A DNA stretch of 64,000 bases, taken from assembly GCA_965220965.1 (NCBI GenBank), contig OZ244852.1:1376001-1440000 (forward strand), written 5' to 3'. This stretch comes from Candidatus Marinacidobacterium sp. Its GTDB lineage: Bacteria; Acidobacteriota; Vicinamibacteria; Marinacidobacterales; Marinacidobacteraceae. The notes below the pieces were generated by a model that was not told the origin of the DNA, did not search any database, and worked only from the letters and a program-made list of their open reading frames with translations. Shown piece after piece: positions 15,536 through 25,427 of the stretch (the stretch's first letter is position 1; each line of letters starts with the position of its first letter). Made by a program: the position numbers and the translations under genes.

Positions 15536-17206
<1,671 letters not shown>

Positions 17207-17226
17207 TCGAGCCCCCTCCCAACCTG

Positions 17227-17260
17227 GCGCCCGCGCCGCTTCGGCGGTGCGGGCGTCTTC
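17227..17260 (+). terminator. Stem-loop terminator after groEL
   Basis: GCGCCCGCGCCGC-TTCG-GCGGTGCGGGCGT followed by a short CTTC tract. Confidence 0.6.
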
Positions 17261-17355
17261 GCGTACGGAGCGATCCGGGGAGCCCTCGGCCGCGCTCCCG
17301 GAAGCTCGCGGGCGGCCTCCTGCAACCCGTCGCGCAGGTCCATACACTCCGCACC

Positions 17356-18351
17356 ATGGCCCGGGGACGAATCGCTCTGGCGCTCGGCCTGCTTGCGGGG
17401 CCGGGATGCGCCCCGGCGCCGGAGGCGCCCAACTGGCGCGACGAGGCGGCCGGGATCGCGGGAGCGCTCGCCGCGGTTCCGACGACGGACTTCACCGACC
17501 TCGGGGTGAGCGTCTGGATCGGACCCGCTGACCTGAGCCTCACCGGCGGCGCGCCGCTCCACGCCGAGGCCGCCGATGTTCCCCGCCCCGCCGCCAGCTC
17601 GATCAAGACGTCGTACCTCGTCGAACTGTTCGCGGACCGCGAGGGGAACCTCCTCGATCCGCTGCCGGACGCCGCCTCGGTCGTCGGCGACCCGGACCAT
17701 CCCGCCGTTACTCACTTCGACGCGGAAACGCAGGCCGAAATCCGGGAGGCGCTGACCGCGGCGCCCACCGAGACGGTGGGCTTCCACATGATCCGGGGGA
17801 CCGGCGTCTCGAACGCGGTCTACAACGCCGCCGCCAACCTGACGACGGCGTTCCTCGGCGGCCCGGCGGAGCTCACCCGCCGGATCCACGCCCGTCACCC
17901 GGACTTCGCCGGGATCCACTCCCGCCGCTACATGCTGGCCGCGCGCGACGTCACCGGCGACAACACCGCGACCGCCGCCTCGCTGGCGGCGGTTCTCGCC
18001 GGGATCGCCCGCGGGGACACGCCCGGGGTCTCGGCGGGGGTCCACGACGAGATCCGCAAGATCCTCTTTCTCGAGGACACGCCGGACGGTCTCCACTTCT
18101 TCAAGGGAGGCTCGCTGAACTCGGATCCCCTGACCCGGGTGCTCTCCGGGTACTACCAGGAGACCGCCTTCAGCGCGCCCGGCGCCGCGCTGACTTACGT
18201 CTTCATGGTCGAGCTACCCGGTCCCGCGGGCATTGCCCCCGGAACGCTCGACCGCGGTGAAGCCGGCGAGCGGCTCCAGGAGCTCGTCTCCGCGATGCGC
18301 GACGCCGCGCTCCCACCCGCCCGCCGCGCGCTGGCGGCCGCGATCCCATGA
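17356..18351 (+). CDS. Serine hydrolase of beta-lactamase/PBP fold, putative lipoprotein
   Basis: AASSIK (SxxK), FFKGGS (KTG-like), N-terminal Cys lipobox-like segment; TACACT 7 nt before the ATG. Confidence 0.65.
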   Translation: MARGRIALALGLLAGPGCAPAPEAPNWRDEAAGIAGALAAVPTTDFTDLGVSVWIGPADLSLTGGAPLHAEAADVPRPAASSIKTSYLVELFADREGNLLDPLPDAASVVGDPDHPAVTHFDAETQAEIREALTAAPTETVGFHMIRGTGVSNAVYNAAANLTTAFLGGPAELTRRIHARHPDFAGIHSRRYMLAARDVTGDNTATAASLAAVLAGIARGDTPGVSAGVHDEIRKILFLEDTPDGLHFFKGGSLNSDPLTRVLSGYYQETAFSAPGAALTYVFMVELPGPAGIAPGTLDRGEAGERLQELVSAMRDAALPPARRALAAAIP

Positions 18352-19592
18352 CCAGGCCGCTCCTCGTCGCCGCGGCGCTCGCGCTGGCGGCGCCGGTCGT
18401 CGCCGAGGACTGGCCGCAGTGGCGAGGTCCGAACCGGGACGGGATCTCGCTCGAGACCGGCCTCCTCCAGCAGTGGCCCGACGGCGGCCCCGAACTCGCC
18501 TTCCGGGCCGAAGGACTCGGCGCCGGCTACTCCACGATCTCGGTGGCTGACGGGCGCGTCTTCACCCTCGGCATGGTCTCCGGCCGCGAGTGGGTCTTCG
18601 CGCTCGATGCGCGGACCGGCGCCACGCTCTGGTCCACGCCGCACGGCGCCGGTCGCCGCGACGGGCGCGGCGATGGCCCGAGATCGGCGCCGACCGTCGT
18701 GGGGGACCGGGTCTTCGTGCTGGGCGCCCGCGGCCGGCTCTCGGCGCTGGAGGCGGCCAGCGGGCAGACGGTCTGGGGCGTGGACCTGATCGGGGACATC
18801 GGCGGACGGAACATCAGTTGGGGAATCAGCGAGTCGCCCCTCGTCCTCGACGGCCGGGTGCTCGTATCCCCGGGCGGCCGCCGCGCCGGGTTCGCGGCCC
18901 TCGACGCCGAGACCGGGGAGGTGCTCTGGGCCACCGGCGGCGACGAGGCGGGCTACGCCTCGCCGATCCCGGTTCCCCTCGCGGGCGCGCCCCATGTCGT
19001 GTTCTTCAGCGGCGACCGGGCCGCCGGGGTCCGCGCCAGGGACGGCGAGGTGCTGTGGAGCTTCGAGGGGGCCTCGAACCGCACCGCGAACATCGCCACG
19101 CCGGTGCTCGCGCCGGCGCCTCCCGGCGCCGCCCGCGTCTTTCTGAGCTCCGACTACGGAACCGGCGGCGCGCTCGTCGAGCTCCGCGCCGGAGACGACG
19201 GGACCGTCTCCGCCACCGAGCTCTGGTTCACCCGGAACCTCCGCGCCCATCACGCCACCCCGATCCTCCACGACGGCGTGCTCTACGGGTTCTCCGGCTC
19301 GATCTTCAGCGCCCTCGACATCGAGACCGGCGGCCTGTTCTGGCGGGACCGGAGCGTCCGCAAGGGCTCGCTCACGTTCGCCGACGGCCGGATCTACGTG
19401 TTCACCGAACGCGGGGACGCGGTGCTGCTCGCCCCGTCGCGGGAGGGATATGACGAGCGCGGCCGCTTCGCCCTTCCCTCGGAGGATCGCTCCCGCCGGG
19501 ACACGTGGTCCCATCCGGTGGTGGCGAACGGGCTCCTCTACCTGCGCGACCAGGAACTCCTGCTTGCGTATGACGTAGCGCAGACGCCGTGA
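18348..19592 (+). CDS. PQQ-like beta-propeller repeat protein (BamB-like)
   Basis: Signal peptide, then EDWPQWRGPNRDG; repeated ALDAxTGxxLW; WSHPVVANGLLYLRD. Confidence 0.88.
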   Translation: MTRPLLVAAALALAAPVVAEDWPQWRGPNRDGISLETGLLQQWPDGGPELAFRAEGLGAGYSTISVADGRVFTLGMVSGREWVFALDARTGATLWSTPHGAGRRDGRGDGPRSAPTVVGDRVFVLGARGRLSALEAASGQTVWGVDLIGDIGGRNISWGISESPLVLDGRVLVSPGGRRAGFAALDAETGEVLWATGGDEAGYASPIPVPLAGAPHVVFFSGDRAAGVRARDGEVLWSFEGASNRTANIATPVLAPAPPGAARVFLSSDYGTGGALVELRAGDDGTVSATELWFTRNLRAHHATPILHDGVLYGFSGSIFSALDIETGGLFWRDRSVRKGSLTFADGRIYVFTERGDAVLLAPSREGYDERGRFALPSEDRSRRDTWSHPVVANGLLYLRDQELLLAYDVAQTP

Positions 19593-19966
19593 AGTCTCCG
19601 CTCCGCTTCGCGACCGCCCTCTTTGTCGTCGCGGCGTTCTTCGCCGCCCAGGGCTTCGCCACCCCCCACATGCTGGGGATGGACTGCGATGCGGATTGCC
19701 CGGACTGCGCCGTCGAATGCATCGGCTGCCAGGTCGCCTCCGCGGAGCCTCCGCAGCCGCTCGATACCGCCGGGGATCAGACCGGACCAAAAGAGGTCGC
19801 CCAGGTCGGCGCGGCATTCACCGCGTCCGCCCCACGGCGCCCGGGCGCCCCACCCCGCGGCCACCCGCCTGAGAAGGACATCCCCGGACAAGAGCCGCGA
19901 CCCGCGGTCCGTATCCGGGGCTCATCCGCCAGGGCCGACCGGCGCTCCCGAACGCTGTACTCCTGA
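19589..19966 (+). CDS. Cys-rich secreted leader peptide, copy 1 (frameshifted at the RGPP motif)
   Basis: Signal peptide and HMLGMDCDADCPDCAVECIGC identical to copy 2. One C is missing at ~19861, which changes RGPPA* to RGHPPEKD... with read-through into the UTR. Confidence 0.7.
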   Translation: MKSPLRFATALFVVAAFFAAQGFATPHMLGMDCDADCPDCAVECIGCQVASAEPPQPLDTAGDQTGPKEVAQVGAAFTASAPRRPGAPPRGHPPEKDIPGQEPRPAVRIRGSSARADRRSRTLYS

Positions 19967-20031
19967 ACGAGGCGCGGGAGTCCGTGTGGCCCGTTCCGCC
20001 GCGCGAAGCGCGGCTACGGAGTTCCTTCCCG
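19870..20031 (+). promoter_or_regulatory. Structured 5' leader RNA of outer-membrane protein, copy 1
   Basis: Three stems conserved with copy 2; the last stem (TCCG CCGCGC GAA GCGCGG CTA CGGA) covers the GGAG RBS. Confidence 0.6.
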
Positions 20032-21381
20032 ATGGCCACCAACCTCTTCCTCCCCGGGCGCAGGACCCGCTCTCTCGTTCCAGGAGCGACCTCCGCTCTC
20101 CTGCTCTGTCTCGGCGCCCCGGTCTTCGCCGGCCCCGGCGCTTCACACCCGGACGAAGTTCCCCCCGGGTGTTCCCTGCTGGACCCCCGTCAGGCCCGGG
20201 CGGTCCCCCTCGCCGACTGCGGACAGGGATCCCTCCCCTCCCCGGCCCAGGCGGTGGCGCATGCGCAGGCGGACCGCGATCCCGACATCGGCGACGTCAC
20301 CGAGGCGCTTCGGGGCGGCGGAGCCCAGCACGCTCAACACTCTCAGCACGGGCCCGACGCCCACCAGCCGATGGCCTTCACCGCCGACGGGCATGCCCCG
20401 ATCGGCGTGATGGGGGTTATGGGCGCCCACGTGCACGGCGCGGGTGAACTCATGCTCTCGTACCGGTTTCAGCCGATGGCGATGAGCGGTCTGCGGGACG
20501 GCTCGGCCGACCTCGCCGACGCCGAAGCGCTCGCGGTGGACAACCCCTTCTTCGGCAACCCCGGCCAGCCCCCCAAGATGCGCATCCTTCCGCGCGAGAT
20601 GCCGATGAACATGCACATGGTCGGCGCGATGCTCGGGGTCCACGAACGGGTCACCCTGATGGGCATGGGCATGTACATGTCCCGCGACATGACGCTCGAG
20701 ACCCACAACATGATGGGCGCCCCGATCGGGACCTTCGAGCCGGGAAGCTCCGGCCTGGGGGACAGCAGCCTCGGCGCGTTGATCAGCCTGGCGCAGGGCG
20801 CCGTCAACGTCCAGATGATGGCCGGCGTCGGGATCCCCACCGGGTCGCTCGATACCAGCGGCGAGGTGCTGCTCCCGACCGGGATGCAGCGCGAACTCCG
20901 GCTGCCCTACGCGATGCAGCTCGGATCCGGCACGTTCGACGCGCAGCCCGGCATCGTCGTCCAGACGAAGCGGGGCAACGTCAGCGTGGGAGGGCAGCTC
21001 CGGGGCAGGATTCGTTTCGGCGAGAACTCCGATGGCTACCGCCTCGGAAACGAGGTCCTGGCCACCGCCTGGGCGATGGTCCAGCCGGTCCCGGCCGCCG
21101 CGCTCACCGCGCGCGTCCAGTTCGACCAGATGGGCGCCATCGAGGGTCAGGACGGGATGATCGCCGGTCCGGTCCCGACGGCCGACCCGTCGAACTACGG
21201 CGGAACCCGGGTCACCGGTCTCATCGGCCTGAACCTCGCCGGCCAGAGCGGCGCGATCCGGGAGCACCGGCTGGCGTTCGAGCTCGGCATCCCGCTGTAT
21301 CAGGACCTGAACGGCCCGCAGATGCCGCGAAGCTGGGAGTTCATGGTGGGCTGGCAGCGCGGCTGGTCGCTGACCAACTGA
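20032..21381 (+). CDS. His/Met-rich outer-membrane beta-barrel transporter, copy 1 (putative metal/Cu uptake)
   Basis: Signal peptide; HAQHSQH region; DGHAPIGVMG..HVH; MLSYRFQPMAM; MPMNMHM; YAMQLGSGTFD; LYQDLNGPQM; aromatic terminal beta-strand. Confidence 0.75.
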   Translation: MATNLFLPGRRTRSLVPGATSALLLCLGAPVFAGPGASHPDEVPPGCSLLDPRQARAVPLADCGQGSLPSPAQAVAHAQADRDPDIGDVTEALRGGGAQHAQHSQHGPDAHQPMAFTADGHAPIGVMGVMGAHVHGAGELMLSYRFQPMAMSGLRDGSADLADAEALAVDNPFFGNPGQPPKMRILPREMPMNMHMVGAMLGVHERVTLMGMGMYMSRDMTLETHNMMGAPIGTFEPGSSGLGDSSLGALISLAQGAVNVQMMAGVGIPTGSLDTSGEVLLPTGMQRELRLPYAMQLGSGTFDAQPGIVVQTKRGNVSVGGQLRGRIRFGENSDGYRLGNEVLATAWAMVQPVPAAALTARVQFDQMGAIEGQDGMIAGPVPTADPSNYGGTRVTGLIGLNLAGQSGAIREHRLAFELGIPLYQDLNGPQMPRSWEFMVGWQRGWSLTN

Positions 21382-21416
21382 CGCTCCTCCCCAGAGGAAC
21401 GCCGACCGGTTTGGCC

Positions 21417-21458
21417 GGGCCGTCTGATCCCACCCGGTGGGGGCGGACGGTCTCCTCC
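21417..21458 (+). terminator. Hairpin after transporter copy 1
   Basis: GGCCGTCTGATCCCAC-CCG-GTGGGGGCGGACGGTC imperfect stem. Confidence 0.4.
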
Positions 21459-21508
21459 GCCCCCGCAACCCGGCGCTCGCGAATCGCGTAGGATGTAGCG
21501 CAGCCTCC

Positions 21509-21793
21509 GTGAAGTCCCCGCTCCGCCTAGCGACCGCTCTCCTGGTCGTCGCGGCGTTCTTCGCCGTCCAGGGCTTCGCCACCCCCCACATGCTGGGGAT
21601 GGACTGCGATGCGGATTGCCCCGACTGCGCCGTCGAGTGCATCGGATGCCAGGTCGCCTCCGCGGAGCCTCCGCAGTCGCCCGAGGCGTCCCGGGTAACG
21701 GGAGTCAGGCATCGGGCGCCGAAGATCGTCACGGTCGTCGCTGCGCCGGCGCCGCGCGATCCGGGCGCCCCGCCTCGCGGCCCACCCGCCTGA
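21509..21793 (+). CDS. Cys-rich secreted leader peptide, copy 2, with C-terminal RGPP arrest-like motif (DUF2946/CutF/CruR-like architecture)
   Basis: GTG start homologous to 19589; signal peptide; C-x3-C-x2-C-x3-C-x2-C; Pro-rich linker ending APPRGPPA*. Confidence 0.8.
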   Translation: MKSPLRLATALLVVAAFFAVQGFATPHMLGMDCDADCPDCAVECIGCQVASAEPPQSPEASRVTGVRHRAPKIVTVVAAPAPRDPGAPPRGPPA

Positions 21794-21954
21794 GAAGGAC
21801 ATCCCCGGACAGGAGCCGCGACCCGCGGTCCCTATCCGGGGCTCATCCGCCAGGGCCGACCGGCACTTCCCGAACGCTGTACTCCTGAACGAGGCGCGGG
21901 AAGTTCCTGTGGCCCGTTCCGCCGCGCGATGCGCGGCTACGGAGTTCCTTCCCG
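21794..21954 (+). promoter_or_regulatory. Structured 5' leader RNA of outer-membrane protein, copy 2
   Basis: Stems CCCCGGA/TCCGGGG, ACTTCCCG/CGGGAAGT and CCGCGC/GCGCGG; the RBS lies in the last stem. Confidence 0.65.
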
Positions 21955-23127
21955 ATGGCTTTCCATCTCCTTTCCCGGCGACGCGGGACCCGCGTCGTCC
22001 TTCCCGGAGCGGCCTCCGCTCTCCTCCTCGCCCTCGGCGTCCCGGCCTTCGCCGACCCGGACGCGCCCTCTCCCGACGAGGCCGAAGTCTCGTCGACCAC
22101 CGGCGCCGACGACGCCGATCAGCTCGCTCCCTACAACGCCGACGGCCACGCCCCGATCGGCGTCATGGCCGAGCACATGCACAACGCCGGCGAGTTCATG
22201 CTCTCGTACCGCTTCCAGCCGATGGCGATGAGCGGTCTGCAGGACGGCTCGGCCGAGCTCGCCGACGCCGAAGCGCTCGCAGTGGACAACCCCTTCTTCG
22301 GCAACCCCGGCCAGCCCCCCAAGATGCGCATCCTCCCGCGCGAGATGCCGATGAACATGCACATGTTCGGCGCGATGCTCGGGATCCACGACCGGGTCAC
22401 GCTCATGGGCATGGGCATGTTCATGTCCCGCGACATGACGCTCGAGACCCACAACATGATGGGCGCCCCGATCGGGACGTTCGAGCCCGGAAGCTCCGGG
22501 ATCGGGGACAGCAGCCTCAGCGCGATGATCGGCCTCTCCTCCGGCGAAGTCCGCGCCCACCTGATCGCGGGCGTCGGGATCCCCACCGGGTCGCTCGACA
22601 CGACCGGCGAGGTGCTGCTGCCGACCGGCATGCAGCGCGAACTCCGGCTGCCCTACGCGATGCAGCTCGGATCCGGCACGTTCGACGCCCAGCCCGGCAT
22701 CGTCGTCCAGACGAAGCGGGGCAACGTCAGCGTGGGAGGGCAGCTCCGGGGCAAGATCCGCTTCGGCGAGAACTCGGAGGGCTACCGCCTCGGCAACGAG
22801 GTCCTCGCCACCGCCTGGGCGATGGTCCAGCCGGTCCCGGCCGCAGCGCTCACCGCGCGTGTCCAGTTCGACCAGATGGGCGCCATCGAGGGACAGGACG
22901 GGATGATCGCCGGTCCGGTCCCCACCGCCGACCCGTCGAACTACGGCGGGACGCGGGTCACCGGGCTCATCGGCCTGAACCTCGCCGGCCAGAGCGGCGC
23001 GATCCGCGAGCACCGGCTGGCGTTCGAGCTCGGCATCCCGCTCTACCAGGACCTGAACGGCCCGCAGATGCCGCGAAGCTGGCAGTTCATCGCCGGCTGG
23101 CAGCGCGCCTGGTCGTTCGCCAACTGA
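21955..23127 (+). CDS. His/Met-rich outer-membrane beta-barrel transporter, copy 2
   Basis: Paralog of 20032-21381 with a shorter N-terminus; DGHAPIGVMAEHMH. Confidence 0.78.
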   Translation: MAFHLLSRRRGTRVVLPGAASALLLALGVPAFADPDAPSPDEAEVSSTTGADDADQLAPYNADGHAPIGVMAEHMHNAGEFMLSYRFQPMAMSGLQDGSAELADAEALAVDNPFFGNPGQPPKMRILPREMPMNMHMFGAMLGIHDRVTLMGMGMFMSRDMTLETHNMMGAPIGTFEPGSSGIGDSSLSAMIGLSSGEVRAHLIAGVGIPTGSLDTTGEVLLPTGMQRELRLPYAMQLGSGTFDAQPGIVVQTKRGNVSVGGQLRGKIRFGENSEGYRLGNEVLATAWAMVQPVPAAALTARVQFDQMGAIEGQDGMIAGPVPTADPSNYGGTRVTGLIGLNLAGQSGAIREHRLAFELGIPLYQDLNGPQMPRSWQFIAGWQRAWSFAN

Positions 23128-23166
23128 CGCTCCCGCGGAGGGCGCGCCGGCTCGACCGGCGCGCCC

Positions 23167-23937
23167 TCACGGCGCCTGGGAAGAAAGGCGCTCGGGGGAT
23201 TCCCTGCGGGCGTCCAGTTCCCGCTCGAGCGCCCGGGACGCGGTGCGTCCCACCCACCGGACCAGGAAGAACATCGCGACGGCGCTGACCAGCGTCAGGA
23301 CCGCGGCCATCGAGGCCTGGCCGGTGACCAGCGACGCGCTGGCGGAGCCGGCGGCGCCGACCTGGGCGAAGAACGACGCGCCGAGCGGGATCGCGAAGAG
23401 CGACCCGACGGCGTAGGTGCGGAAGCTCACCGGCGTGACCGCCCAGCCGTAGTTCTGGGCGGCGAACGGGATCAGCGGCGGCAGTCGGGTCAGGAGGACG
23501 ACGCGGACTCCGCCGGCGCCCAGCACCCGGAACACCGCCGCGGCCACCGGGAAGCGGGCGAGGACCCGCTCGACGAACCGCCGGAGGACGAGGCGCGCCA
23601 GCCAGAAGGCGGTCAGCGACCCCAGCCAGGTCCCGATCGAGGCGATCACGCTGCCCCAGACCGGCCCGAACAGCAGGCCGGCGGCGACGCAGAAGACCGT
23701 GTTCGGGACCGCGACGCCCACGAGGAGCGCGTGGACGACGATGAGCGGCGCCGGCGTCGTCGGGATCCACGCGGGGAGCTCGACCGGTTCGCCGACGCTG
23801 AGCCAGGCGATCAGCCCGGCGGTGCTCACGAGGAACAGGCCCCACAGCAGCGGCTGCCAGCCCCGGCGGAGGAGCTTCTTCCACCAGGGCCCGCCGCCCG
23901 CGGCGCGCGCCGGGCCGGCCGGGGGTCGGGTCGCCAA
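23167..23937 (-). CDS. TVP38/TMEM64 (VTT/DedA superfamily) membrane protein
   Basis: AGLLFGPVWG; LLTRLPPLIPFAAQNYGW motif. TTG start just after the mmsA stop is inferred. Confidence 0.8.
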   Translation of the reverse strand: MATRPPAGPARAAGGGPWWKKLLRRGWQPLLWGLFLVSTAGLIAWLSVGEPVELPAWIPTTPAPLIVVHALLVGVAVPNTVFCVAAGLLFGPVWGSVIASIGTWLGSLTAFWLARLVLRRFVERVLARFPVAAAVFRVLGAGGVRVVLLTRLPPLIPFAAQNYGWAVTPVSFRTYAVGSLFAIPLGASFFAQVGAAGSASASLVTGQASMAAVLTLVSAVAMFFLVRWVGRTASRALERELDARRESPERLSSQAP

Positions 23938-23945
23938 CCCCGGAC

Positions 23946-25427
23946 TCAGAACCGCCGCGAGGCGTCGCGGGGCCAGCGCTCCACGACGACCTTCGTCTGC
24001 GTGTAGAACTCGACGGCGTGCGGCCCCTGGGCGTGGAGGTCGCCGAAGAAGCTCCCCCGCCAGCCGCTGAACGGGAAGAACGCCATCGGCGCCGCGACGC
24101 CGACGTTGATCCCGATGTTCCCGGTGAGGGCGTCCCGGCGGAAGCGGCGCGCGGTCGGGCCGTCGTTCGTGAAGACGCACGCCATGTTGCCGTAGTCGCC
24201 GCCGTTCACGAAGCGCAGCGCATCGTCCACGCTCTCCACCCGGATCAGCCCGAGCACCGGCCCGAAGATCTCGGTGCGGGCGATCTCGCCGGCGGCGGGC
24301 AACCGGTCCAGAACGGTGGGACCGACGAAGAACCCGTCCTCGCGCCCCTCGACCGACAGACCGCGCCCGTCGGTGACGGCGCGCGCCTCTTCCTGCTCGA
24401 TCGCCTGGGTGATCAGCCCCTCGATGCGCTGTCGGCTCTCGTCGCGGATCACCGGCCCCATATCGACACCGTCGTCGAGCCCCGAGCCGACCACCCGGCT
24501 CTCCGCCTGCGCCGCCATCGCGTCGGCGAACGCATCCCCCGCGCTCCCCACGGTGACCGCCAGCGAAGCCGCGAGACACCGCTGCCCGGCGCACCCGAAG
24601 GCACTCTCGGCCACGTTGCTCGCCGCCGCCTCCATGTCGGCGTCCGGGAGGACCACGACCGGGTTCTTCGCGCCGCCCTGGCACTGGACGCGCTTGCCGC
24701 TCGCAGCCGCCCGGGCGTAGACCGCGCGCGCGACCGGCGAGGATCCCACGAAGCTCACCGCGGCCACATCCGGGTGGTCCAGCAGCGATTCGACGGCCTC
24801 CTGTCCCCCGTGGACCACCTGGACGACTCCCTCGGGAAACCCGGCCTCCTCGAGCAGGGCGATCACCCGGTGAACGGTGATCGGGGTCTTGTCGGACGGC
24901 TTGATGACGACCGCGTTCCCGCAGGCGAGCGCATAGGGCAGGAACCAGAACGGGATCATCGCGGGGAAGTTGAACGGCGCGATGATCGCCACGACGCCCA
25001 CCGGCTGGCGGATCATGAACTCGTCGATGCCCCGGGCGATGTCCTCGAGCACGCGTCCCTGCATCAGCGAGGGGATCCCGCAGGCGACTTCCACGTTCTC
25101 GATGGCGCGCCGCACCTCGCCCCGCGCCTCGGCGAGCGTCTTCCCCGCCTCGAGGGTCACGTTGCGCGAGATCTCCTCGAAGTCCCGCTCCATCAGGGCC
25201 TTGAGGCGGAAGAGCGGCTGGATCCGGTCGGTTGGCGGGACCTCGCGCCACTCCCGGAGGGCCGTCGAGGCGCTGGCGACCGCCCGACCCACCTCTTCCG
25301 CGCCCGAGAGCGGGATCCGGGAGAGCGCGCTCCCGGTGGCGGGGTCGAAGATCGTCGCGGTGGCGGCGGTGGGAGCGGGGACGAACCGGCCGCCGATGTA
25401 GTTGGGGAGCGTCGATGGAAGGCTCAT
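23946..25427 (-). CDS. mmsA: CoA-acylating methylmalonate-semialdehyde dehydrogenase
   Basis: [40 protein letters not shown] and FFGDLHAQG motifs. Confidence 0.9.

Follow-up and report, generated by a model that had tools for sequence, protein, structure and literature searches.

The duplicated leader-channel unit

The stretch of DNA analysed here, called the window, comprises 64,000 nucleotides (nt) of the genome of Candidatus Marinacidobacterium sp. (Acidobacteriota; Vicinamibacteria). It contains a tandem duplication of a two-gene unit (Table 1). In each copy, a small upstream open reading frame (uORF) for a putative exported leader peptide is followed by a spacer and by the gene of a predicted outer-membrane channel. 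The spacer is the subject of this work. Excluding the stop and start codons, it measures 159 nt in copy 1 and 161 nt in copy 2, and exactly two copies exist in the genome. A sequence-only reading of the window had described two similar stretches between a leader and a transporter. Both are present as described, with eight differences between them; the start given for the first (19870) was right, and the one given for the second (21794) lay 3 nt late (21791). The spacer element is real and selected. Computation supports a constraint acting on it as an RNA-level feature of the + strand, which is physically linked to the putative stall site at the end of the leader and to the downstream Shine-Dalgarno (SD) sequence. 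The link is a predicted long-range closing helix, termed P0.

Both leaders begin with a basic and then hydrophobic segment ending in ...AQGFA (seen by eye in the translations) and contain a cluster of five cysteines with the CxxC motifs CPDC and CIGC. In copy 2, RGPP (codons at 21776-21787) follows CPDC at a spacing of 49 residues, and the peptide ends in RGPPA-TGA. Copy 1 as assembled is one base short after 19860 and reads RGHPPEKD... through to 19966. An extra C after 19860 restores the end ...GAPPRGPPA-TGA with the stop codon at 19870-19872. Read-derived contigs specific to copy 1 carry this extra C (depth 93.6/93.6 in run X1 and 5/5 in run X2), and over 19672-19884 the copy-1-specific contig differs from the window in no other letter. 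Most likely, leader copy 1 also ends in RGPPA-stop, and the frameshift (19856-19872) is probably a homopolymer or assembly error or a strain variant. The idea of copy 1 as a decayed leader was dropped because the read-derived contigs carry the missing C.

Orthologous leader-channel pairs were found in five related genomes (G001, G004, G007, G010 and G015). All five leaders have a signal-like N-terminus, the motif MDC/MECxxxCPxC (CGEC in G007) and RGPP near the end; their cluster contains six cysteines. RGPP stands one residue before the stop in both window copies and in four of the orthologues (RGPP[A/S]-stop). The CPxC-to-R spacing is exactly 49 in all six readable Vicinamibacteria uORFs. The linker within this spacing (19757-19845 and 21677-21765 in the two window copies) shows about 45% identity and is unalignable, and its length is equal, with 42 residues after the last Cys. 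To judge from these sequences, the linker behaves like a ruler, of which the length would matter and the sequence would not.

The orthologous leader of G015 (L029/L044) ends in RGPPHPKESR-stop, with RGPP six residues before the stop, and the channel protein of this genome finishes in another frame (…TVGCVPGRS), which points to indel errors of the assembly or to real decay.

In proteobacterial uORFs of the same operon type, the CxxC-to-R spacing is 44-46 (20 loci) or 40 (7 loci). Seven loci form an Erythrobacter-type subgroup (L077, L082, L094, L100, L104, L107 and L115) with a His-rich region, CCSAC, a spacing of 40 residues and the ending ...RPPFPAY[ED]ARGPP. By these sequence features, their leaders are a distinct branch of the leader family ahead of the same channel gene.

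The features of the window leader can be compared with those of published arrest peptides. CruR (Bp2923, DUF2946) of Bordetella pertussis is encoded by a uORF upstream of bfrG and consists of an export signal, CXXC, 45 residues, RAPP, three further residues and the stop (PMC9426467). A further study places the two Pro codons of CruR in the P and A sites of the arrested ribosome and ranks RGPP first in strength among RAPP-like arrest motifs; upstream of copper- and TonB-related genes in many phyla, it reports small secreted proteins with RAPP or RGPP at their end (PMC12992588). ApdA and ApdP are likewise RAPP/RGPP arrest peptides (PMC7897499, PMC10951233). By its features, the window leader would be a CruR/CutF-like arrest-peptide uORF, and it is probably a copper sensor. 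Neither window uORF matched a Pfam family at E <= 0.01, PF11162 (DUF2946) included, or any NCBIfam family, and four Vicinamibacteria orthologues gave no Pfam family at E <= 1. Among the proteobacterial uORFs, four of eight matched DUF2946 below threshold (E 3e-4 to 5e-3, 18-22 bits; cut-off 23.7). The lack of a Pfam DUF2946 match, together with a spacing of 49 rather than 45 residues, sets the window leader off from CruR proper.

Table 1 Position of the features of the duplicated unit in the window, and of similar uORFs elsewhere in the genome (last line). aa, amino acids; P0, closing helix; RBS, ribosome-binding site
Feature	Position	Strand	Description
Tandem duplication of the two-gene unit	19589-23127	+	Small ORF, spacer and large ORF in each unit
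Leader uORF, copy 1	19589..19872	+	GTG start; putative hydrophobic export signal; Cys cluster MDCDADCPDCAVECIGC
Leader uORF, copy 2	21509..21793	+	94 aa; putative export signal; Cys cluster MDCDADCPDCAVECIGC; RGPPA-TGA
Spacer, copy 1, stop codon through start codon	19870-20034	+	165 nt
Spacer, copy 2, stop codon through start codon	21791-21957	+	167 nt
P0 5' strand, copy 1	19870..19883	+	UGAGAAGGA (19870-19878; stop codon and six bases) and UCC (19881-19883)
Stem 1, copy 1	19884..19918	+	CCGGA/UCCGG around the hairpin CCGCG-ACC-CGCGG
Stem 2, copy 1	19932..19992	+	Long imperfect hairpin, 17 + 3 + 3 bp; site of the +U/+A indel pair
Stem 3, copy 1	19998..20014	+	GCCGCGC-GAA-GCGCGGC
P0 3' strand and RBS, copy 1	20018..20034	+	SD GGAG (20018-20021), spacer UUCCUUCCCG, ATG (20032-20034)
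P0 5' strand, copy 2	21791..21804	+	UGAGAAGGA (21791-21799) and UCC (21802-21804)
Stem 1, copy 2	21805..21839	+	14 bp; G-C pair 21812/21832 replaces the A.G of copy 1
Stem 2, copy 2	21853..21915	+	With the extra U-A pair
Stem 3, copy 2	21921..21937	+	GCCGCGC-GAU-GCGCGGC
P0 3' strand and RBS, copy 2	21941..21957	+	SD GGAG (21941-21944), spacer, ATG (21955-21957)
Downstream gene, copy 1	20032..21381	+	449-aa Met/His-rich outer-membrane beta-barrel channel (predicted)
Downstream gene, copy 2	21955..23127	+	390-aa Met/His-rich outer-membrane beta-barrel channel (predicted)
Other CxxC...R[AG]PP uORFs, own genome	G000 C1, stops 116826, 444770, 2304911, 2758779		L212, L214, L215, L213

The predicted closing helix and the constraint on the spacer

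The folds discussed here are minimum free energy (MFE) predictions, and all pairing was determined in silico. The three stems quoted in the sequence-only reading occur in the MFE folds of both spacer copies. P0 is also present in both and encloses stems 1-3 and the whole spacer. In copy 1, positions 19870-19878 and 19881-19883 pair with the GGA of the SD (20018-20020) and, between SD and AUG, with UCCUUCCCG (20023-20031). The corresponding strands in copy 2 are 21791-21804 and 21941-21954. In the stall geometry of PMC12992588, the P and A sites hold the two Pro codons of RGPP, and the stop codon then lies 10-12 nt from the first P-site base. The 5' strand of P0, which starts with this stop codon, would be located at the leading edge of the stalled ribosome or immediately past it, and most of the strand would be occupied or unwound. 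The earlier proposal that stem 3 pairs with the SD holds for an optional UCCG/CGGA extension (19995-19998 with 20017-20020), an alternative SD partner, and not for the MFE fold, in which the SD GGA is part of P0 instead.

In the free state, the SD GGA and UCCUUC have an unpaired probability of 0.0-0.1. Removal of the stall footprint raises that of UUCCUUC from about 0.1 to 0.5-1.0, with 0.9-1.0 for UUCC. Masking the first 14 nt of the spacer costs 10.1 kcal/mol, and stem 1 of copy 1 lengthens to CCCCGGA/UCCGGGG (19882-19920) once P0 is open.

The differences between the two copies fall at eight sites, and none of them breaks a predicted helix. In stem 1, A/G at 19891 faces G/C at 19911, giving A.G in copy 1 and a G-C pair in copy 2. 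A G/A difference at spacer column 75 turns a G.U into an A-U pair, and a C/U difference at column 115 turns a C-G into a U.G pair. The additional U of copy 2 (column 77) faces its additional A (column 111) in stem 2 and adds a U-A pair, so that the compensatory indel noticed in the sequence-only reading stands. The remaining differences lie within an internal loop (column 117, G/C) and within the loop of stem 3 (column 140, A/U). The G.U pairs at columns 75/114 and 73/115 are valid only in the RNA of the + strand. At 19891 and 19911, the single read-derived contig carries the letters of copy 2, so the copy-1 letters lack confirmation there; the contig has probably kept one branch of a variant bubble.

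A fold more stable than that of shuffled sequences is found on the + strand, with z-scores of -2.41 for copy 1 (3 of 200 shuffles as stable) and -4.13 for copy 2 (0 of 200). On the - strand, the z-score is -1.65 (11 of 200). Random sets of six substitutions and two indels were introduced into each copy in 1000 trials. The stability of the other copy was matched by 10 sets from copy 1 and 118 from copy 2, and most sets cost about 8-12 kcal/mol of fold stability.

The spacer has also diverged three times less than synonymous sites. In the downstream genes, 47 of 327 codons for identical residues differ; from this synonymous divergence about 23.7 differences would be expected in 165 nt, and 8 are seen (Poisson P = 1.8e-4). 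The regions that flank the spacer, i.e., the leader linker and the N-terminus of the channel, show about 45-65% identity with indels. The two single-base indels lie 34 nt apart and would break any reading frame, which means that the constraint on the spacer is not one on coding.

Counterparts in related genomes and in other operons

The channel gene is found in 6 of 28 genomes of the family and in 9 of 55 of the order. A DNA search with a 201-nt spacer sequence in 61 genomes gave, outside the genome itself, only matches of 20-41 nt with E-values of 7.6e-6 or weaker. The best of these covers the conserved end of the uORF in the sister species G001, not the stems. The spacer of G001 can be aligned with those of the window only at its ends. 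There, GAGAAGAGACCU right after the stop codon pairs with AGGAUCUCUUCUC right before the AUG. The duplex has an energy of -17.4 kcal/mol, which 0 of 1000 shuffles reach, and its 5' strand is the best partner of the RBS in the whole G001 spacer. In the alignment of the three spacers, five of the nine P0 pairs are invariant, two are compensatory (G-C to A-U and A-U to G-C) and two are paired in G001 only. The register of P0 gives 85% paired cells vs <=70% for slid registers.

The inner part of the spacer is different. G001 is predicted to form two hairpins, which differ from the three or four of the window, and other genera show other inner folds. Conservation therefore extends to the closing helix and the general plan, and the inner stems do not form a conserved motif. 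The conserved three-stem RNA proposed from the sequence is thus a shape of the two window copies. In G007 and G015, the predicted partner of a box after the stop codon, GAAGGAA(C/U)C, lies about 55 nt downstream, away from the annotated RBS, and one compensatory change from C-G to U-A is seen in this pairing. The comparison within the Vicinamibacterales comprises seven spacers, too few for statistics of the R-scape type.

The plan of a helix between the uORF end and the RBS recurs in a much larger set of operons. The channel family is frequent in marine Alphaproteobacteria as well as in other groups; 160 loci were kept. Upstream ORFs of at least 50 aa that end in R[AG]PP plus 1-4 residues are present at 67 of these. 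Loci outside the window with spacers outside 25-400 nt were dropped, and identical sequences were counted once. The stall footprint was defined as nt 10-30 from the Arg codon and the RBS as -20 to +3, with at least four MFE pairs between the two as the criterion. Among the homologous operons with an R[AG]PP uORF (58 distinct ones), 42 show such pairs, as do 10 of the 17 spacers longer than 100 nt. On average 7.2 footprint-RBS pairs are predicted in the 58 loci vs 3.6 with shuffled footprints; 11 and 12 are predicted in the two window copies. Removal of the footprint lowers the opening energy of the RBS by a median of 5.1 kcal/mol over 63 loci, with a decrease of more than 2 kcal/mol at 49 loci and an increase of that size at none. 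At 39 of 59 loci, the RBS is shut more strongly by the cognate stall-site segment than by 19 or more of 20 shuffled ones (Wilcoxon p = 2e-10). Typically, the last codons and the stop pair with the SD around one GC-rich hairpin, e.g., ACAUCCUGA with UCAGGAUGA in L055. In L079, a spacer of 179 nt is enclosed by a uORF-end/RBS helix.

Unrelated operons of the same genome offer further cases. Thirty small ORFs of the genome end in R[AG]PP, and five of them carry a CxxC motif, window copy 2 being one. The other four (Table 1) encode a signal-like N-terminus, CxxC, 42-44 residues and RAPP or RGPP 1-3 residues before the stop, and have no Pfam match. Three lie 66-158 nt upstream of genes for TonB-dependent receptors (Plug, barrel and CarboxypepD_reg), and the fourth lies 137 nt upstream of a gene for an ATP-binding cassette (ABC) ATPase. 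Two of the spacers (158 and 137 nt) are closed by a uORF-end/RBS helix, with 14 and 6 pairs and 0 of 50 shuffles as good in each case. In a third operon, the RAPPA codons pair with the SD over 13 bp, and the nine pairs counted are not significant (12 of 50 shuffles). No uORF-end/RBS helix was found for the remaining operon in the MFE fold and the 50-shuffle comparison.

The downstream gene is predicted to encode a Met/His-rich, 12-strand-type outer-membrane channel resembling COG4313. The channel proteins had no Pfam or NCBIfam match at E <= 0.01, and a search of PDB sequences with a channel profile returned no match. The AlphaFold model, built on an alignment of seven rows, is a beta-barrel of moderate confidence (mean pLDDT, the predicted local distance difference test, 67.5). 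It resembles the outer-membrane channel FapF (5o67_C, E 2.9e-8) and a COG4313 channel (4rl8_C, E 4.4e-8, TM 0.70 on the target), and the protein is rich in Met and His motifs. Its nearest ESM-Atlas clusters are labelled 'transporter family', with PF13557 on 26-83% of their members. The name transporter, used in the sequence-only reading, is reasonable given this model and these clusters. The two channel copies are 88% identical over residues 51-390 of copy 2, and the conserved parts of the flanking genes have identities of 0.95-1.0 at first and second codon positions. Channel copy 1 (20032-20400, compared with 21955-22150) has about 60 extra residues with His/Gln-rich stretches between the signal peptide and the start of the barrel, DGHAPIGVM.

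Directly upstream of leader copy 1 lies a gene for a pyrroloquinoline quinone (PQQ)-like beta-propeller (PF13360, 18348-19592), and the same arrangement is seen in the five related genomes (L027-L031). The stop codon of this gene overlaps the GTG of the leader (GTGA). The duplicated unit begins about 25 nt before this stop, and leader copy 2 has no such gene upstream. No sigma-70 promoter was found in 18300-23600, and neither was an intrinsic terminator (0 vs 1.3 expected). The interval between channel gene 1 and uORF 2 (21379-21512) folds no better than shuffled sequences (z -0.66), and no terminator is claimed there for this reason.

A proposed arrest-peptide switch and its alternatives

In the SecM-secA system of Escherichia coli, a stalled ribosome disrupts an RNA helix that hides the downstream SD. 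Two further systems are metal-linked. CutF of Rhodobacter capsulatus is a Sec-exported leader with CxxxC and a Pro-rich end, whose stall melts a stem-loop shielding the SD of cutO (PMC9973294; 10.1101/2025.02.05.636593). The stem-loop of CutF is opened by the stalled ribosome and acts only in cis, and its authors expect stall-driven unfolding to be restricted to short spacers (PMC9973294). In cruR, a G+C-rich spacer of 162 nt follows the uORF, the stall blocks Rho termination before the gene of a TonB-dependent receptor, copper relieves the stall, and copper has no effect on the RNA alone in vitro (PMC9426467). The text of the CruR paper does not mention an SD or RBS (PMC9426467).

The window locus shares features with each of these systems. 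Like CutF-cutO, it combines a small, putatively exported leader, a Cys motif of the copper-binding type and a Pro-rich C-terminus with an intergenic structure over the SD of the next gene, here a predicted one. Unlike CutF, with its one short stem-loop, PPP-type motif and multicopper oxidase target, the locus is from an acidobacterium and has RGPP as its motif, an outer-membrane channel as target and a 160-nt spacer in which a long-range closing helix is predicted to surround 3-4 inner hairpins. With CruR it has in common a putative export signal, CxxC, a fixed-length spacing, R-A/G-P-P near the stop, a long G+C-rich intergenic region of similar length (162 nt vs 159/161 nt) and an outer-membrane target. 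The target class of CruR recurs in the three uORFs of the same genome that precede TonB-dependent receptors. Differences from CruR (45 residues, DUF2946, Rho-dependent) are the 49 residues, the lack of a DUF2946 match, the larger Cys cluster and the predicted RBS-masking helix. As in SecM, ApdA and ApdP, an arrest motif of the R-A/G-P-P type ends a putatively exported leader, and a helix is predicted to hide the downstream SD. Those leaders monitor secretion and precede sec or yidC genes, unlike the window leader with its metal-type Cys cluster and the Met/His-rich channel next to it.

We lean towards an arrest-peptide switch of the type known from SecM, CutF and CruR, with the spacer as its RNA half; in this reading P0 shuts the RBS of the channel gene and a stall at RGPP opens P0, and our confidence in it is a little better than even. 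The peptide half would be the small, putatively exported leader with its Cys cluster and its end in RGPPA-stop, RGPP being a published arrest motif. Without a ribosome at the end of the leader, the RNA would adopt the multi-branch fold. P0 would then pair the stop codon and the next ~12 nt with the SD GGA and UUCCUUCCCG, and the RBS would be shut. With its P and A sites on the two Pro codons, an arrested ribosome would cover the mRNA up to roughly the sixth base after the stop codon. It would therefore occupy or unwind the 5' strand of P0 and free the segment between SD and AUG, and a new ribosome could start on the channel gene. The inner stems 1-3 would hold the strands of P0 together across 160 nt; a role of these stems in mRNA stability or in pausing of RNA polymerase is also possible. 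The relay from stall to RBS suggested in the sequence-only reading is, according to this scheme, kept in part: the constraint and the link between stall site and SD have computational support, and the relay would be P0 rather than the three stems.

The analysis shows the sequences, the predicted folds, the constraint, the covariation of P0 and the recurrence of the architecture; the arrest, the metal, any effect on expression and the sign of the response are inferred. In a CruR-like system, metal would release the stall and shut the gene, which would suit an uptake channel; in a CutF-like one, metal would prolong the stall and turn the gene on. The output may be access to the RBS, Rho-dependent termination or both.

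Several points weigh against this reading. In the window itself, the opening energy of the RBS drops by just 0.7-0.9 kcal/mol on removal of the footprint, and shuffled 5' segments do as well as the cognate one in 4 of 20 and 9 of 20 cases for the two copies, so the unmasking is not significant there. The modelled unmasking is weak because the GG of the SD can pair anew elsewhere, with UCCG words such as that of the stem-3 extension, and because, in copy 2, the AUG pairs with a downstream CCAUC. The P0 duplex taken alone is marginal compared to shuffles (48 and 50 of 1000 as strong). Its covariation comes from two lineages and is equalled in 44 of 500 column shuffles. The comparison of copies involves two paralogues of one genome. 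No clear helix between stop and RBS is predicted in the other Vicinamibacteria genera: G007 has no footprint-RBS pair, and its GAAGGAACC box pairs ~55 nt downstream, G004 has four such pairs, and the spacer of G010 measures 507 nt. The start codons of the 58 loci were chosen by rule, and the window uORFs are without a Pfam match to the DUF2946 family of CruR.

Attenuation of the CruR type is possible but rather unlikely as an alternative, and it can coexist with the unmasking of the RBS. The spacer would then be the pause and stop region of a Rho-dependent terminator with its loading site in the C-rich 3' part of the leader; the stall would block Rho, and the stems would pause RNA polymerase. 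CruR, the closest relative studied experimentally, works in this way, with a G+C-rich spacer of nearly the same length (PMC9426467). The absence of intrinsic terminators from 18300-23600 and the partial pairing that the RBS retains in the modelled stalled state also speak for Rho. C exceeds G at 19780-19920 and 21740-21880 (C 0.46-0.50, G 0.29-0.32), i.e., at the 3' end of the uORF and the start of the spacer, but this is seen in the adjacent coding sequence too. Rho-dependent attenuation leaves unexplained the complementarity between uORF end and RBS in 42 of 58 operons and the covariation of P0.

It is improbable that the similarity of the spacers is a neutral leftover of a recent tandem duplication or of gene conversion, with folds typical of any sequence of 70% G+C. 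There are two copies only, in one genome, the inner stems are not kept in the sister species, the z-score of copy 1 is modest (-2.41), and a conversion tract is conceivable because conserved parts of the flanking genes are about as similar as the spacers (0.95-1.0 at first and second positions). Neutrality is, however, hard to reconcile with a divergence three times below that of synonymous sites (P = 1.8e-4) next to a linker and a channel N-terminus of ~45-65% identity, with eight differences that are all structure-neutral or compensating, and with a closing-helix architecture that is also found in non-homologous spacers. Very improbable is a ligand-binding RNA such as a metal riboswitch, a small RNA or a protein-coding element: a conserved, well-folded and multi-branch element resembling a 5' untranslated region before a putative metal-related channel gene speaks for this reading, but cmscan of 17000-25000 found no Rfam match in either spacer at E up to 10 (two chance matches lie elsewhere), sequence conservation ends at the genome itself, the indels would break any frame, and the RNA of CruR alone did not respond to copper in vitro (PMC9426467).

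The preferred reading, that of an arrest-peptide switch closed by P0, follows a principle already published for SecM, CutF and CruR. The locus adds an example and not a new kind of RNA, as the sequence-only reading had considered; the spacer would correspond to the intergenic part of such switches (PMC9426467, PMC9973294). Three features are particular to the locus. A predicted long-range helix bridges a long spacer with several hairpins, the paralogues form a natural pair that differs by a compensatory indel, and a strict ruler of 49 residues goes together with Met/His-rich channels of the COG4313 type as the target family. RAPP/RGPP arrest leaders are very widespread, and the route from stall to expression has been solved for two metal-linked ones, which differ: a stem-loop in CutF and Rho in CruR. 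The paralogues, with their homologous and non-homologous counterparts, indicate that a multi-hairpin spacer of 160 nt can, as predicted, place the RBS against the stall site by means of a long-range helix. GAAGGA/UCCUUC provides a concrete, mutable target for translational unmasking in systems with long spacers.

Long-range closing helices might be a general way for RAPP/RGPP leaders with long spacers (100-190 nt, perhaps including the 162 nt of CruR) to gate initiation, a generalisation that we put forward tentatively and regard as doubtful so far. Inner hairpins would hold the uORF end and the RBS together, and one stall would open the RBS and, through new ribosomes, protect the transcript from Rho. 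If true, the translational model of CutF and the Rho model of CruR would be united. By this analysis, arrest-peptide control of the metal type is also linked to a family of Met/His-rich outer-membrane channels that is uncharacterised and frequent in marine Alphaproteobacteria. If the reading is correct, Met/His-rich outer-membrane channels of the COG4313 type would represent a new class of copper-regulated genes.

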